Shown: positions 3,366-11,528 of the stretch, one piece after another
Position numbering within the stretch: position 1 is the stretch's first letter
Layout: each line of letters starts with the position of its first letter
Origin: a virus
Length of the DNA stretch: 18,917 nucleotides
Reading direction: 5' to 3' (one strand)
Virus genome (UHGV): UHGV-0096894
The notes under the pieces: model-generated
Database searches by the model: none
What the model saw: only the letters and a program-made list of their open reading frames with translations
What the model was told of the DNA's origin: nothing
Translations under genes and position numbers: made by a program

Positions 3366-4421
3366 GTGCGGGTATTGCTTCGACCTGTTCCTGTACCGGA
3401 ACTTGGGCTGGTGGTCCTTAAGCCTGGCCGTGAATCCATGCAGGTATTTCATAACCCTCGAGTGCTGGTAGAGCCGGAACCGAAAAGCATGCGCGGCCTG
3501 CCGTCCGGGATTGTTCCTGCCGTTCGCCAGCCACTGATGGAAGATAAATCATTACTGCCATTTTTCAGCGACGAACGGGTGATTCGCGCTGCCGGCGGTG
3601 CTGGTTCACTGTCTGACTGGCTCCTGCGTCATGTTAAATCCTGCCAGTGGCCTCATGGTGACTATCATCACAGTGAAATCGTCATACATCGTTACTGTAC
3701 CGGCGCGATGGTGTTGTGCTGGCACTGCGACAACCAGCTGCGTGACCAGACATCAGAATCACTTGAACAACTTGCTCATCAAAACCTGGCAGCATGGATG
3801 ATTGACGTCATCCGTCACGCAATGAATGGCACGCAGGAGCGGGAATTATCGCTGGCTGAATTGTACTGCTGGGCTGCTGTAAATGATGTAGTGGATGCCA
3901 TGACCGAAAATATGGCGCGTCGAATCCTGAAGCTTCCGGGTGAAAAAATCTGCTCAGTATACCGCGAGAGCGACATCATACCGGGAGAGCAGACAGCCAT
4001 CAGCATACTGAAGCAGCGCACAAAAAATCTTGCGCCGCTGCCTCACGCCCACCAGCAAAACCCGCCACAGGAAAAGACGGTGGTCAGCATTGCCGTTGAT
4101 CCGGAGTCACCGGCTCAGTATCTCCAGCGCCAGAAACCACAACGGGAAGATATGCCTGTATACACGCGCTGGGTAAAAACGCAGAAATGCATGACGTGCG
4201 GTAATCAGGCAGATGATCCGCATCACATCATTGGTCATGGGCTGGGAGGGATGGGAACAAAGGCTGATGATTTGTTTGTTATTCCGCTGTGCCGTAAATG
4301 TCATAACGAACTGCACGCCGGGGTAAAAGATTTTGAAGAAAAACACGGCAGCCAGCTGTTGTTGCTGATTCGTTTTTTAATGCACGCGAGAAATTCGGGT
4401 GTCCTGAAGTGGAAAGCATGA
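3366..4421 (+). CDS. DUF968-like lambdoid prophage protein with Cys/His-rich (HNH-like) C-terminal region
   Basis: GTG start at 3366 with GGAGG 5 nt upstream. The C-terminus CMTCGNQADDPHHIIGHGLGGMGTKADDLFVIPLCRKCHNELH has the paired Cys plus His pattern I associate with the DUF968/YdfU family of nin-region proteins. Stop abuts the rusA start. Confidence 0.65.
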   Translation: MRVLLRPVPVPELGLVVLKPGRESMQVFHNPRVLVEPEPKSMRGLPSGIVPAVRQPLMEDKSLLPFFSDERVIRAAGGAGSLSDWLLRHVKSCQWPHGDYHHSEIVIHRYCTGAMVLCWHCDNQLRDQTSESLEQLAHQNLAAWMIDVIRHAMNGTQERELSLAELYCWAAVNDVVDAMTENMARRILKLPGEKICSVYRESDIIPGEQTAISILKQRTKNLAPLPHAHQQNPPQEKTVVSIAVDPESPAQYLQRQKPQREDMPVYTRWVKTQKCMTCGNQADDPHHIIGHGLGGMGTKADDLFVIPLCRKCHNELHAGVKDFEEKHGSQLLLLIRFLMHARNSGVLKWKA

Positions 4422-4799
4422 ATGACTGAACGCATAGAATTTGTTTTGCCTTACCCGCCGACGGTGAATACTTACTGGCGACGTCATGGCAATACGTATT
4501 TCATCTCGGAGGCCGGAAAGCGTTATCGCCGTGATGTGGCGCTAATTGTTCGCCAGCAGCGGCTGAAATTAAACCTGTCCGGAAGGCTGGCGATAAAGAT
4601 TATTGCAGAGCCACCGGATAAGCGCCGTCGTGACCTGGACAATATCCTGAAAGCACCACTGGATGCGCTGACGCATGCCGGACTTCTCATAGACGACGAT
4701 CAGTTTGATGAAATCAATATTGTGCGTGGTCTGCCTGTTTGCGGTGGGCGACTGGGTGTGAATATATTCGTAATAAGAGGATGTAATGATGTTGCGTGA
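4422..4799 (+). CDS. rusA: RusA-family Holliday junction resolvase
   Basis: Product [40 protein letters not shown]...[30 protein letters not shown]...GGRLGVNIF carries the RusA landmarks (PP..N.Y, RRRDLDN, DALT.AG, DD.Q, GGRL). ATG immediately follows the upstream stop. Confidence 0.85.
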
Positions 4800-5160
4800 T
4801 ATTCAGCTGGTTATGGAGCGGTGGGGAGCATGGGCAGCAAATAATCATGAAGATGTAACATGGCCCTCGATAGCTGCTGGTTTTAAAGGATTAATCCCGG
4901 CTAAAGTGAAATCACGTCCTCAGTGTTCTGATGATGACGCCATGATAATTTGTGGCTGTATGGCACGATTAAACAAGAATAATCAGTATTTGCACGATTT
5001 GTTGGTGGATTATTACGTAGGTGGAATGACATTTATGGCTCTTGCACGTAAGCATAGATGTTCTGATGGGCTTATTGGTAAAAGACTTTATAAAGCGGAA
5101 GGTATTATTGAAGGAATGCTTATGGCTCTGAATGTCAGGTTAGATATGGATATGCGGTAG
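4786..5160 (+). CDS. Late-gene antiterminator Q (Q21/QuuD-like family)
   Basis: Product [36 protein letters not shown]...[14 protein letters not shown]... matches my recollection of the small phage-21/DLP12 QuuD-type Q proteins. AGAGGA RBS upstream. The position (after rusA, before late genes) fits. Confidence 0.65.
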
Positions 5161-5250: not shown

Positions 5251-5279
5251 TTGCCAGGTGAATTGAAAATATTGATAAT
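5251..5279 (+). promoter_or_regulatory. Candidate sigma70 promoter (possible pR'-type late promoter)
   Basis: -35 TTGCCA (5251-5256), exactly 17-bp spacer, -10 GATAAT (5274-5279), in the Q-to-next-gene intergenic region where lambdoid pR'/qut elements lie. No hairpin terminator seen between here and the downstream gene. Confidence 0.35.
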
Positions 5280-5310
5280 CAATATTCATCATTAAATGAA
5301 AGGAGTGTTT

Positions 5311-6129
5311 ATGTGGATTGTGTTAGCACTGTCACTGTCAACTCTCAGTTGGCATAAGGTAGTGGCTTTTTCATTGTTGACGGTGTCTGCTGTCCTGGCT
5401 GTACTTAATGATATTATTGATTGGCCGGTGTTGTTTTTTGTTGCTACAATCGTCTTTTTTATTATTTTGAAGTTCAACTGGAAATATAACGCTTGGGCTA
5501 AATCCATATATGAAGCTGGCATAGTTTTATCAGCCATAGCATTATCTTTCCATTTATGGCCAGGGTTTCACAATCCTGTAGTGCTAAAGTCTGTTACTGT
5601 CGGACCTCAAAGCACTCCCTATACAATGTATTTTAATTTTGATAAAGCGCTGGTGCCATTTTTGTTAGTCCTGTGTACAGCTTCTTTGTTTAAAAAAGAA
5701 GTGAAATCAGAAGTGTCTTTGTGGAAATGGGGGGCTCTGTTGCTCTCTGTTCCTCTTATCCTGTTTTTGGCTGTTTTTTTTGGTGGGTTAAAGCCAGAGA
5801 TTCATTTTCCTGAGTGGTTGCCAGAGTTTATATTGGCTAATTTGTTTTTTGTGTCTCTGGCAGAGGAATCATTATTTAGAGGGTATATTCAATCACGGCT
5901 ATCAGAAGTAACGTCTCCATTGATTGCGTTAATTGTGGCGTCTTTGTTGTTTGGTCTTTTTCACTATTCAGGTGGTGCTTTACTTGTATTATTTGCCACG
6001 TTATCTGGTGTTGTGTATGGATTGTCATGGATGTGGAGTGGGCGCTTGTGGGTGGCAACCCTTTTCCATTTTGGTCTGAATCTGTGTCACTTGTTATTCT
6101 TTACCTATCCATTCTTAAAACATAATTGA
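5311..6129 (+). CDS. CPBP-family (Abi/CAAX-protease-like) intramembrane metalloprotease
   Basis: AAGGAG RBS 6 nt before ATG at 5311 (the track starts at 5296). Polytopic hydrophobic protein with all three CPBP motifs: EESLFR (EExxxR), FGLFH (FxxxH) and HFGLN (HxxxN). Confidence 0.8.
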   Translation: MWIVLALSLSTLSWHKVVAFSLLTVSAVLAVLNDIIDWPVLFFVATIVFFIILKFNWKYNAWAKSIYEAGIVLSAIALSFHLWPGFHNPVVLKSVTVGPQSTPYTMYFNFDKALVPFLLVLCTASLFKKEVKSEVSLWKWGALLLSVPLILFLAVFFGGLKPEIHFPEWLPEFILANLFFVSLAEESLFRGYIQSRLSEVTSPLIALIVASLLFGLFHYSGGALLVLFATLSGVVYGLSWMWSGRLWVATLFHFGLNLCHLLFFTYPFLKHN

Positions 6130-6210
6130 TTTTTTTCTATGGTTTTAAATTTATAACACTGAAAAATAGCAGGATGTGACATTTGCATGAGAAATATGCA
6201 CGGCAAAGCA

Positions 6211-6224
6211 TTTACGTACGTAAA
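6211..6224. promoter_or_regulatory. Perfect 14-bp palindrome TTTACGTACGTAAA, candidate operator
   Basis: Exact reverse-complement symmetry at 6211-6224, flanked by AAGCAT/ATGCTT arms, in the untranslated region downstream of the CPBP gene and about 200 bp upstream of the small winged-helix ORF. Confidence 0.3.
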
Positions 6225-6270
6225 AAATCATGTATGCTTTTAAGAGTGGTTATTTCACCGCATAGCCTGA

Positions 6271-6293
6271 ACCCGCCTCTGAGCGGGTTTTTT
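6271..6293 (+). terminator. Rho-independent terminator
   Basis: Stem acccgc(6271-6276)/gcgggt(6283-6288), loop ctctga, then a 6-T run. Confidence 0.6.
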
Positions 6294-6417
6294 GTGCCCG
6301 CAAAGTAGCGCAGTGCGTTAAATGTGCTAGTGGTTATTAATACTGGTCTTTCTGCTTGCTGGCTTTTTCGACAAGAGGTATTGGTATGTCACGTTAACCA
6401 GAAAAGGGAAAAAGACA

Positions 6418-6614
6418 TGCTAAAACAGCAAGATATGACCGAAACCGCCAGAGTGGTGTTTAATGAATTAAGCGTCACCGAACCGGCGACCGTCGGGGAG
6501 ATTGCGCAGAATACTTACCTTTCACGCGAGCGCTGCCAGTTAATACTGACCCAGCTTGTTATGGCGGGCCTGGTAGATTATCAGTTCGGTTGTTACAGAC
6601 GCCTTCCGCAGTGA
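6418..6614 (+). CDS. Small winged-helix DNA-binding protein (65 aa), PapI/FaeA-like
   Basis: ATG at 6418 with AAGGGA upstream. ATVGEIAQNTYLSRERCQLILTQLVMAGLV resembles the recognition-helix region of small PapI/FaeA-type regulators. The track ORF starts earlier at 6324 without an RBS. Confidence 0.5.
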
Positions 6615-6764
6615 AGGCTTTTTTATTTGTGGTAATGGGCGGCTGGTGGGTGTTAGCGGCACCTGCCAGCCATCTGCTCATGCGTTGGGGTCACAAGCAA
6701 ACCTCAGGCCCATCTGCTTTGCGCAAAAGCGGAATGAGCCTATCAGAGAAGTGCTTATTGATCT

Positions 6765-7811
6765 ATGGTTAATACTGTAAAAATATCCAGTTGTGAGTTG
6801 ATCAACGCTGATTGCCTGGAATTTATCCAGACCTTACCGGAAAACTCTGTCGATTTGATAGTCACAGACCCGCCATACTTTAAAGTGAAGCCCGAGGGCT
6901 GGGATAACCAGTGGAAGGGTGACGATGATTACCTGAAGTGGCTGGACCAGTGTCTGGCGCAGTTCTGGCGGGTACTGAAGCCCGCCGGAAGTCTTTACCT
7001 GTTCTGTGGGCATCGTCTGGCATCTGATATCGAGATCATGTTGCGTGAACGTTTCAACGTGCTTAACCATATCATCTGGGCGAAGCCGTCCGGACGCTGG
7101 AACGGGTGCAGGAAGGAAAGCCTGAGGGCATATTTCCCGGCAACAGAGCACATACTGTTTGCTGAACATTACCAGGGGCCATATCGGCCAAAAAATGATG
7201 GCTATGTGGCAAAGGGGCGCGAGCTTAAACAGCATGTCATGGCTCCGCTGATTTCTTACTTTCGTGATGCGCGTGAATCACTGGGGATAACGCCGAAACA
7301 GATAGCGGAAGCCACCGGAAAGAAAAACATGGCTTCGCACTGGTTTGGTGCCAGCCAGTGGCAGTTACCGAACGAAGCTGATTACAGAAAGCTGCAGGCG
7401 TTGTTTGCGCGTGTTGCAGCAGAAAAACATCAACGCGGAGAACTGGAAAAGCCACACCACCATCTGGTCAGCACATACAGCGAACTGAACCGGCAATATG
7501 TCAGCCTGCTGGAAGAGTATAAATCTTTGCGGCGTTATTTTTCCGTATCGGCAGCCGTTCCTTATACGGATGTCTGGACGCACAAACCTGTGCTGTATTA
7601 TCCGGGTAAACATCCGTGTGAGAAGCCAGCAGATATGTTGCGGCAGATAATTACAGCCAGCAGTCGTCCGGGGGAACTGGTTGCAGACTTTTTTATGGGA
7701 TCGGGGGCGACTATAAAGGCTGCGCTCTCTCTGGAACGTAGAGCTATTGGTGTAGAGCTGGAAACGGACAGGTTTAATCAAACGTTTGATGAAATAAGAA
7801 ACAATGGTTAG
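6765..7811 (+). CDS. Orphan DNA amino-methyltransferase (N6-adenine or N4-cytosine, beta-class)
   Basis: Catalytic motif IV DPPY (LIVTDPPYF) near the N-terminus and AdoMet motif I FxGxG (DFFMGSGAT) near the C-terminus, the circularly permuted order of beta-class amino-MTases. No restriction endonuclease gene adjacent. Confidence 0.85.
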   Translation: MVNTVKISSCELINADCLEFIQTLPENSVDLIVTDPPYFKVKPEGWDNQWKGDDDYLKWLDQCLAQFWRVLKPAGSLYLFCGHRLASDIEIMLRERFNVLNHIIWAKPSGRWNGCRKESLRAYFPATEHILFAEHYQGPYRPKNDGYVAKGRELKQHVMAPLISYFRDARESLGITPKQIAEATGKKNMASHWFGASQWQLPNEADYRKLQALFARVAAEKHQRGELEKPHHHLVSTYSELNRQYVSLLEEYKSLRRYFSVSAAVPYTDVWTHKPVLYYPGKHPCEKPADMLRQIITASSRPGELVADFFMGSGATIKAALSLERRAIGVELETDRFNQTFDEIRNNG

Positions 7812-7977
7812 CTTTTTTTTGCGAACTTTTTAATTTTTATAATATTGTATAATTATGTTTTAAATACCTGACATTGTTTGTATTGAAACAGGAGCGGAAT
7901 TCATTATTATTCTTCGTCGGTTCCAAGGGAGGGTAATTTATGTATCCGGGCATCTCATCCACACCTGAGGAACCAAT

Positions 7978-8053
<76 letters not shown>

Positions 8054-8056
8054 TAT

Positions 8057-8131
<75 letters not shown>

Positions 8132-11183: not shown

Positions 11184-11528
11184 AATCTCTTTGTTTCTCG
11201 TGTGCGACCGCGGTCGCACGCTAAATTCCGCGCTGCATCGTCGCCGTATTCCCGCATTAACCATGACCGCAGCCCGATGGGGAACTCCTTCTGCGCGAGT
11301 GTGCGGGAATAATCAAAAACGATGCACACCGGGTTTTTACCGCGCTAATGATTCGCGGGTTTATCCCGGTGCGATGGTGGAAGAAACCGGAAGCTGTATT
11401 ACAGAAAGTGCTACTACTGTATCCCGATGCGATGTATGTAATGTGAGTCAGATAATGGCACAGGATGTGGTGATGTGGCAGTCTGGAACACAGGATATAT
11501 TGTCAGAATAAGACCCGTAGGAATAAAA

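Follow-up and report, generated by a model that had tools for sequence, protein, structure and literature searches.

What brings together, in a prophage of Escherichia coli, a perfect palindrome, a gene for a protein of 65 amino acids and an orphan DNA methyltransferase? The three lie at positions 6211-7811 of the virus genome UHGV-0096894, an 18,917-nucleotide stretch of DNA (hereafter the window, meaning the whole of this stretch) that belongs to a lambdoid E. coli prophage with closest complete-genome matches at 98-99% identity. A first-pass annotation had proposed a self-contained pair of regulator and methylase, in which the small protein, likened to the PapI/FaeA regulators, might use the palindrome as its operator. 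We believe that a different explanation is likely, namely that the locus is the Q-dependent start of a late operon carrying a methylase of the M.EcoGII type, an accessory winged-helix gene and a structured leader.

The methylase (METHYLTRANSFERASE), a protein of 348 amino acids encoded at 6765..7811 on the + strand, matches PF01555 at 4.6e-41 over residues 29-339. Its DPPY (D35-P36-P37-Y38) and FFMGSG (309-314; F309-F310-x-G312-S313-G314) motifs are intact and invariant in the family alignment, where no degenerate motif was found, and their order, with DPPY N-terminal, the target-recognition domain central and FxGxG C-terminal, is that of the beta class, as the annotation had proposed. The enzyme is 84% identical to M.EcoGII at full length (347 aligned residues; the M.EcoGII sequence, machine-read from Table S1 of PMC11551740, contains a few errors), 87% identical to Anc291, a reconstructed ancestor read from the same table, and 84% identical to the enzyme of phage 1720a-02, which has been named as very similar to M.EcoGII (PMC5778455) and whose phage shares the gene order of the window. 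On the strength of the identities to M.EcoGII and Anc291, we therefore file the gene as a member of the M.EcoGII family; M.EcoGII is likewise a prophage-borne orphan, of ~349 amino acids and with the beta-class motif order. The orphan status of the window enzyme was confirmed in so far as no restriction enzyme gene occurs among the neighbouring open reading frames (ORFs) scanned, which comprise RusA, a DUF968/HNH-like gene, Q, a CPBP protease and a holin.

Prophages of E. coli O104:H4 C227-11 encode M.EcoGII and M.EcoGI, which are non-specific N6-adenine DNA methyltransferases (Murray et al., 2018; PMC5778455). According to passages of the same paper, M.EcoGII methylates adenine in any context, is unexpressed in the lysogen and is harmful once expressed, and its role is discussed as overcoming restriction barriers. 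Passages of PMC11551740 describe M.EcoGII and reconstructed ancestors as largely non-site-specific, Anc291 as experimentally active and itself largely non-site-specific, and M.EcoGII as needing no partner protein for activity. By homology, the window enzyme is predicted to methylate adenine non-specifically. Since enzymes of this type are already a known family, the finding as first written was largely ordinary. Most of its regulatory interpretation proved wrong. In the passages of the M.EcoGII literature available, no description was found of the upstream winged-helix gene, the leader or the late-operon position.

That position is clear from comparison with related phages. The stretch 6100-7900 is 80-90% identical to the Shiga-toxin phages phiP27 and 1720a-02, to many phages encoding Shiga toxin 2 (Stx2) and to Shigella phage SfV. 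In phiP27, SfV and 1720a-02, a block of terminator, small ORF, conserved gap and methylase follows Q and precedes tRNAs, stx or lysis genes, and our locus therefore sits at the head of a Q-controlled late operon. The Q gene of the window (4786..5160, + strand; 124 amino acids) belongs to the Q21 family of antiterminators (PF06530, 5.9e-51; phrog_79, 'anti-termination protein Q-like') and its product is a distant homologue of Q21 (PDB 6P18/6JNX, E 7e-8). We hold the identity of the methylase and its late-operon setting, taken together, to be highly probable.

Between Q and the methylase, the signals of a late promoter can be recognised. A TAnnnT hexamer, TATGCT (6233-6238), directly precedes a conserved box, TTTAAGAGTGGTTA (6239-6252), on the + strand, and hexamer and box recur at fixed spacing in all loci with the Q family of the window; TATGCT is the putative -10 and the box the putative initial transcribed region of PR'. 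The predicted short transcript from this promoter (6245-6293; ~48 nt, two hairpins) ends at a tR'-like intrinsic terminator (terminator 1, 6270..6293, + strand), in which an 8-bp hairpin, AACCCGC-CTCTGA-GCGGGTT, is followed by a T run that gives the U run of the RNA. The equivalent site of SfV is annotated as a rho-independent terminator, and hairpin and T run are kept across loci despite differing stem sequences. A terminator scan identified a second intrinsic terminator (terminator 2, 6601..6628, + strand; GCCTTC-CGCAGT-GAAGGC then TTTTTTATTT), which extends over the small-ORF stop codon; at loci without the small ORF, a terminator likewise stands directly before the leader. Each of the two genes thus has an intrinsic terminator upstream, and both lie downstream of a Q-type late promoter box. 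Together with the activity of M.EcoGII alone and the methylase loci that have no small protein, this arrangement speaks against a self-contained module.

Some autonomous expression is possible all the same. A two-part motif, consisting of CTTGCTG, ~12 variable nucleotides and CAGAGTTAYNTGTRTG, lies 25-60 nt upstream of the small-ORF ATG; in the window it occupies 6355..6392 on the + strand, with CTTGCTG at 6355-6361 and CAAGAGGTATTGGTATGTCAC at 6372-6392 on either side of the variable stretch. All 53 species loci, from E. coli to Xenorhabdus, share it, and its conservation exceeds that of the small protein. Its spacing is promoter-like, while its -10-like part is without the final T. For the 5' region of this ORF, RNAalifold gave no consensus RNA structure, which leaves only the sequence motif; it may serve as an internal promoter or as a site bound by a protein.

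The palindrome is present as annotated: TTTACGTACGTAAA, at 6211-6224, is a perfect 14-bp palindrome. On its own it is at chance level, as Markov-1 shuffles of the window give 1.3 perfect palindromes of at least 14 bp against the three observed, and P = 0.73 for at least one. Another is an 18-bp palindrome, GTGCGACCGCGGTCGCAC, at 11202-11219, and a perfect palindrome, ATCAAACGTTTGAT, lies at 7777-7790 within the 3' end of the methylase gene. On the basis of the shuffles, and of the absence of the window 14-mer from phiP27, SfV and 1720a-02, we initially regarded the palindrome as pure chance. This was revised when all loci were aligned on the conserved box GTTAAGAGTGGTTA (window 6239-6252). In every aligned locus the TAnnnT hexamer stands directly before the box, preceded by an A run and then by a short palindrome that varies between loci. 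The palindromes observed are TTTACGTACGTAAA or TTTACGATCGTAAA; GCGTACGC; GCGGTCCGC or GCGGACCGC; TTCGTWACGAA; TGTTATAACA; and GGAATTCC. Among the 33 loci compared, seven different ones occupy this position, of which four recurrent types account for 30 loci and three types occur at a single locus each.

Clades of the upstream Q protein and palindrome types match one-to-one, each of the four recurrent types being confined to one clade. Q identity is 62-84% inside palindrome groups and 40-60% between groups, the two TTTACG palindrome variants correspond to separate Q sub-clusters, and the correspondence persists across 60-2900 nt of unrelated intervening cargo. Within the Q clade of the window (clade A), the 14-mer is invariant and both flanks have diverged. 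Loops in the palindromes are 0-1 nt long, and the central base is T in some and A in others. By contrast, the window, phiP27 and 1720a-02 have small proteins that are 98% identical, yet three different palindromes, and at three loci (L011, L012 and L021) a palindrome is present although the small protein is missing; the small protein cannot, then, be the specificity partner, and the proposal that the palindrome is its operator finds no support. As the type of palindrome matches the Q clade and is unrelated to the small protein, it is probably a Q-binding element instead. Characterised Q proteins bind an element between -35 and -10 of PR' (PMC6606751), and the position of the palindrome fits such an element if TATGCT is indeed the -10; specificity for the Q allele is supported by the clade match. 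Phage 21 offers the closest parallel (Shi et al., 2019, PMC6606751; Yin et al., 2019). The Q of the window (PF06530) is homologous to Q21, and the short variable element of our loci lies just upstream of TAnnnT and ahead of a terminator, where characterised late promoters have their Q-binding elements. The Q21 element comprises two direct TGAGCA repeats at -21 and -13, whereas the element described here is an inverted repeat of 8-14 bp. All things considered, we put the assignment of the palindrome as a Q-binding element at even odds.

The 150 nt that separate the small ORF from the methylase are as conserved as the coding sequences and persist in loci without the small ORF. We find that most of this interval (6630..6764, + strand) is a structured, non-coding leader of ~140 nt in the methylase mRNA. 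When 45 species sequences are aligned by MAFFT without regard to structure, a set of four helices, fold A, comprising P0 (6636-6640/6708-6712), P1 (6641-6652/6660-6671), P2 (6673-6682/6692-6701) and P4 (6714-6720/6726-6732), with a weak P5, has 92% of its cells paired, compared with 26-43% in controls in which the partners were slid by 1-3 columns. Two-sided pair changes number 14, against 4-8 in the slid controls, and none of 500 shuffles matched the observed values. Such changes affect eight of ten pairs in P1, one pair of P2 is seen as C-G, U-A, A-U and U-G, and the long-range P0 helix shows one clean double change. A covariance model built from this alignment, with which we searched 84 sources and then 92 further loci fetched via distant small-protein homologues, detected the leader in 53 and 65 of these, respectively, with one match per locus that always abuts the methylase ATG. 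Leader identity to the window copy is 74%, compared with 49% at codon position 3 of the methylase, a difference that holds in 52 of 52 comparisons.

Could the leader encode a peptide? Among 53 leaders, the ORF from a conserved AUG ranges from three codons to open through the leader end (3/53), with 23 of 53 stopping after seven codons, and any given frame is open in 13 of the 53 sequences at most. A protein-coding upstream ORF, including the spurious ORFs at 6590-6772 and 6646-6780, was rejected since no frame is conserved. No Shine-Dalgarno sequence precedes the methylase ATG. Rfam lists nothing for ~6432-6800, which includes the leader, even at E<=10, RefSeq annotates nothing at the position of the leader, and a text search of the literature for its sequence found no paper. 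We conclude that the leader is very probably a selected RNA structure.

The leader may also have a second conformation. Single-sequence folding predicts a fold B in which AUGGGC (6635-6640) pairs with GCUCAU (6676-6681) instead of GCCCA, and in which the 3' domain closes GGUCA (~6688-6693) with UGAUCU (6759-6764) directly before the AUG. In the model-fitted alignment, fold A is 94.5% paired and the alternative fold 88% paired. Since both folds are well paired across the family, the RNA can, we reason, adopt two mutually exclusive conformations. There is perhaps an even chance that the leader controls methylase translation, and we would say much the same of the narrower proposal that it acts as a translational gate for a toxic enzyme.

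Several further observations concern the leader. The 5' arm of P1 includes the Chi octamer GCTGGTGG (6642-6649), which most Enterobacteriaceae-type leaders retain and which disappears where the helix covaries. Other Chi sites of the window lie at 553, 3407 and 9275 (+) and at 4049 and 9624 (-). Chi sites on the + strand face the cos-proximal right end, the orientation that is active against RecBCD entering there. A second Chi occurs in the small-ORF 5' region of phiP27, SfV and 1720a-02, where the window has GCTAGTGG (6327-6334). Weak or partial leader copies are found where the methylase has been replaced, at L126 (4208-4358), where an AraC-like gene takes its place, at L193 (3194-3338), where a secreted-looking protein of 481 amino acids does, at L255 (3206-3338) and in some E. 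coli genomes; some O157:H7 genomes hold just the first ~68 nt of the leader. These copies look like remnants of rearranged modules. At a series of Xenorhabdus and Photorhabdus loci (L052-L077, L080 and L082-L083), the gap between small ORF and methylase is only ~40-60 nt and retains just a P1-like hairpin (AAUG..GGCUGGUGG..CCAGCC), and the leader model does not detect it.

What, then, is the small protein? Its ORF (6417..6614, + strand) is preceded by a Shine-Dalgarno-like site, and a comparison of 36 distinct homologous DNAs counted 254 synonymous codon changes against 38 non-synonymous ones. This is a genuine gene, on which purifying selection acts. AlphaFold2 predicts a canonical winged helix with a predicted local distance difference test (pLDDT) score of 93 and the topology H1-S1-H2-H3-S2-wing-S3, which agrees with the fold first suggested for it. 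The suggested kinship with PapI/FaeA did not survive: PF04703 is absent from its profile matches at E<=1, and no PapI or FaeA entry is among its top fold matches. The best profile matches are TrmB (3.5e-4, below its cut-off) and MarR_2, and sequence and fold searches together return generic winged-helix relatives only (TrmB and MarR below threshold, ArsR, MarR, IclR, N-terminal domains of O-methyltransferases and Z-alpha). The protein is without an NCBIfam model, PHROGs lists its family, phrog_331, as function-unknown, and the family comprises 60 representative clusters among 1.84 billion proteins. A search of the PADLOC defence-system library gave generic methylase models only and was uninformative on both the small protein and the CPBP gene.

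The genomic association of the small gene is more telling. A survey anchored on the small protein yielded 73 close and 89 distant usable loci, 162 in all, with identities of 34% to 98%. In 159 of the 162, namely 72 of 73 close and 87 of 89 distant ones, the small gene is followed at 40-160 nt by a methylase homologue, even at 34% identity, so that the earlier view of small ORF and methylase as more than chance neighbours is borne out. In a second survey, anchored on the methylase and covering 80 species genomes, the small protein occupies the same upstream position in ~57. Given the near-constant downstream methylase, and the existence of methylase loci without the small gene, the small gene thus depends on the methylase context and not the reverse. 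In our reading, its product is neither a PapI-type nor a C-type transcription switch. We suggest for it an accessory role tied to methylation, with an enzyme partner or modulator, a binder of methylated DNA and a binder of the leader RNA as candidates; that it acts through the methylase or methylated DNA has, in our estimation, slightly less than an even chance.

Small proteins with a DNA-binding fold are known beside methylases, as in the C proteins, or working with adenine methylation, as in PapI/FaeA. C proteins have an Xre-type helix-turn-helix, a palindromic C-box at their own promoter and a partner nuclease. The window protein differs in being a winged helix, in that the palindrome lies beyond a terminator and tracks Q, and in that no nuclease gene was found among the ORFs scanned. 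PapI and FaeA are encoded in fimbrial operons regulated by Dam and Lrp, whereas the gene described here is part of the late operon of a phage, with Q on one side and the lysis and terminase genes on the other. The antQ-isrK-orf45-anrP locus of Gifsy-1 shares its layout with our locus, with a Q-like gene, a promoter, a short terminated RNA and a read-through mRNA, and the short late-promoter transcript of the window resembles promoter-proximal prophage small RNAs such as IsrK. In the Gifsy-1 read-through mRNA, a structured leader prevents translation of the downstream gene (Hershko-Shalev et al., 2016; PMC4825925). However, the downstream gene of Gifsy-1 is an anti-repressor, not a methylase, and the isrK model (RF01394) matches 6216-6293 at 21.9 bits, far under the Rfam threshold of 50. 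The short promoter-proximal RNA does not pair significantly with either leader (20% and 6% of shuffles performed as well). With different genes, a sub-threshold score and no significant RNA duplex, we rejected the locus as a homologue of isrK-orf45-anrP.

Based on these observations, we propose the following model. Transcription would start at the late promoter just downstream of the palindrome and, in the lysogen, would end at terminator 1 (6293), with terminator 2 (6601-6628) behind it, such that the methylase would be kept silent because it is toxic. After induction, the Q21-family Q would bind the palindrome, its probable loading site, and modify RNA polymerase, and both terminators would be read through. 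The small winged-helix protein would be made first and then the methylase, both of them late, with the small protein serving as a modulator or partner of methylation or of methylated DNA. The leader would set the level of methylase translation; one of its two exclusive folds pairs the six bases before the AUG. The late-made methylase would then hypermethylate the adenines of replicating phage DNA before packaging, and the packaged genomes would resist many restriction systems of the next host. The gene identities, the gene order, the terminators, the covariation of the leader RNA and the agreement of Q clades with palindrome types are results of the analysis, whereas the transcription start, the binding of Q to the palindrome, the part played by the leader in translation and that of the small protein are proposals. 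Going further, we raise as a tentative possibility that the leader is an undescribed family of cis-regulatory RNA for M.EcoGII-type genes, a two-state gate (riboswitch-like, or dependent on the ribosome or a protein) that keeps a toxic methylase silent until late, and that the acidic winged-helix protein is the partner of the leader or of the methylase, for example as a reader or shield of N6-methyladenine DNA.

A number of observations weigh against this model. The small-protein family is acidic, with a median isoelectric point of 5.1, which is unusual for a sequence-specific DNA binder; about a quarter of the methylase loci (~21/80) have other cargo or nothing in place of the small protein, and M.EcoGII is described in passages of PMC11551740 as active without it. 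The promoter-like invariant motif might give expression of the small ORF independently of Q. The alternative fold has fewer two-sided changes, and the model-fitted counts lean to fold A. As for the palindrome, the window element is an inverted repeat and the Q21 binding element a direct repeat, the match with Q could partly reflect physical linkage, and the weak Rfam isrK alignment would set the 5' end of the transcript inside it. Lastly, the methylase is 16% diverged from M.EcoGII, so its specificity rests on homology. Some of these points would suit other explanations. Were the small protein a PapI- or C-protein-like regulator that binds the palindrome and forms with the methylase an autonomous, possibly methylation-sensitive switch, its winged-helix fold, the tight linkage of the genes and the invariant promoter-like motif would all make sense. 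Yet PF04703 gives no match and the structural neighbours are generic; the palindrome is ~190 nt upstream, beyond a terminator, varies under near-identical small proteins, occurs without them and follows Q clades; and the acidity of the family and the many methylase loci without the small protein tell against it as well. We consider such a switch very improbable. That small ORF and methylase are functionally unrelated cargo sharing one recombination cassette is also improbable, if somewhat less so. The methylase does work alone in vitro, many methylase loci are without the small ORF and lambdoid late regions are mosaic, but the methylase keeps its place downstream over the whole range of small-protein identity, the small-protein family is tiny, and the downstream methylase is missing from only three of the 162 loci anchored on the small protein, two of them rearranged loci with a leader remnant and the third with a weak leader match.

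The leader and the palindrome can be questioned in the same way. The interval 6630-6764 might be kept for a reason that lies in the DNA or in coding, either the Chi hotspot or a small upstream ORF starting at ATG 6635. Most Enterobacteriaceae-type leaders contain the octamer, 52 of 53 leaders have the ATG and the remaining one GTG, and in the window the ORF from it extends to 5 nt past the methylase ATG. Against this, the arms of P1 change together and Chi is then lost, G-U pairs occur on the + strand only (pair 27-47: UA 21, UG 21), the length of the ORF from the conserved ATG varies widely with no frame broadly open, and long-range pairs covary too (17-94 in locus L009). We thus give this explanation little credence, and regard a selected RNA structure as the better account of the interval. 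For the palindrome the alternative is a stronger one, although we still think it unlikely: it may be a chance feature, or the site of another factor such as a host protein or a DNA or RNA hairpin. One 14-bp palindrome per window is expected by chance, Q21 binds a direct repeat, and by the isrK alignment part of the palindrome would be transcribed. On the other hand, the recurrent types that make up 30 of the 33 loci are each limited to one Q clade, the 14-mer is invariant amid diverging flanks, and short loops with a central T/A flip fit a symmetric protein site better than an RNA hairpin. A Q-binding element remains our preferred reading of the palindrome.

The remaining features of the region lie outside the module. 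Upstream of Q is a RusA gene (4422-4799). Between Q and the late promoter, a gene for a CPBP/Rce1-like intramembrane protease (5296..6129, + strand; PF02517, 4.8e-20) is cargo, and it has its own good sigma-70-like promoter (promoter-like site at 5251-5279). In phiP27 a GIY-YIG nuclease gene occupies this slot, and other loci have different cargo or none, with 60-2900 nt from Q to the promoter box; the interval looks like a hotspot for cargo genes expressed in the lysogen. Downstream of the methylase, tRNA-Thr(UGU) and tRNA-Gly(UCC) (7978..8131, + strand; ARAGORN, with Rfam tRNA scores of 69.8 and 60.3 bits) fill the slot where Stx phages have ileZ/argO and stx, and a promoter-like site matching at 10 of 12 positions lies upstream of them (7883-7910). 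Beyond the tRNA genes follow a holin and then lambda-like terminase and portal-sized ORFs.

For the footprinting of chromatin and of protein-DNA contacts, M.EcoGII is a standard tool, with many such uses in the literature. Three features are apparently new, in that we found no description of them: the winged-helix protein dedicated to the methylase, the structured leader and the palindromes specific to Q clades. Our analysis places the M.EcoGII family in a defined circuit, in which Q-dependent readthrough of two terminators is followed by a conserved structured leader, and this bears on how a phage can use an adenine methylase that acts across the genome and yet avoid the premature death of its host. 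The leader was found in 961-1399 of 5426 complete E. coli genomes, roughly a fifth, including those with Shiga-toxin phages, where it lies upstream of stx; it may therefore affect the expression of the late operon and possibly of the toxin. The match between Q clades and palindromes provides a natural specificity series for Q21-family antiterminators. If the leader switch, the partner protein and the palindromic Q elements are all true, the natural control circuit of an enzyme widely used for chromatin footprinting would be defined.

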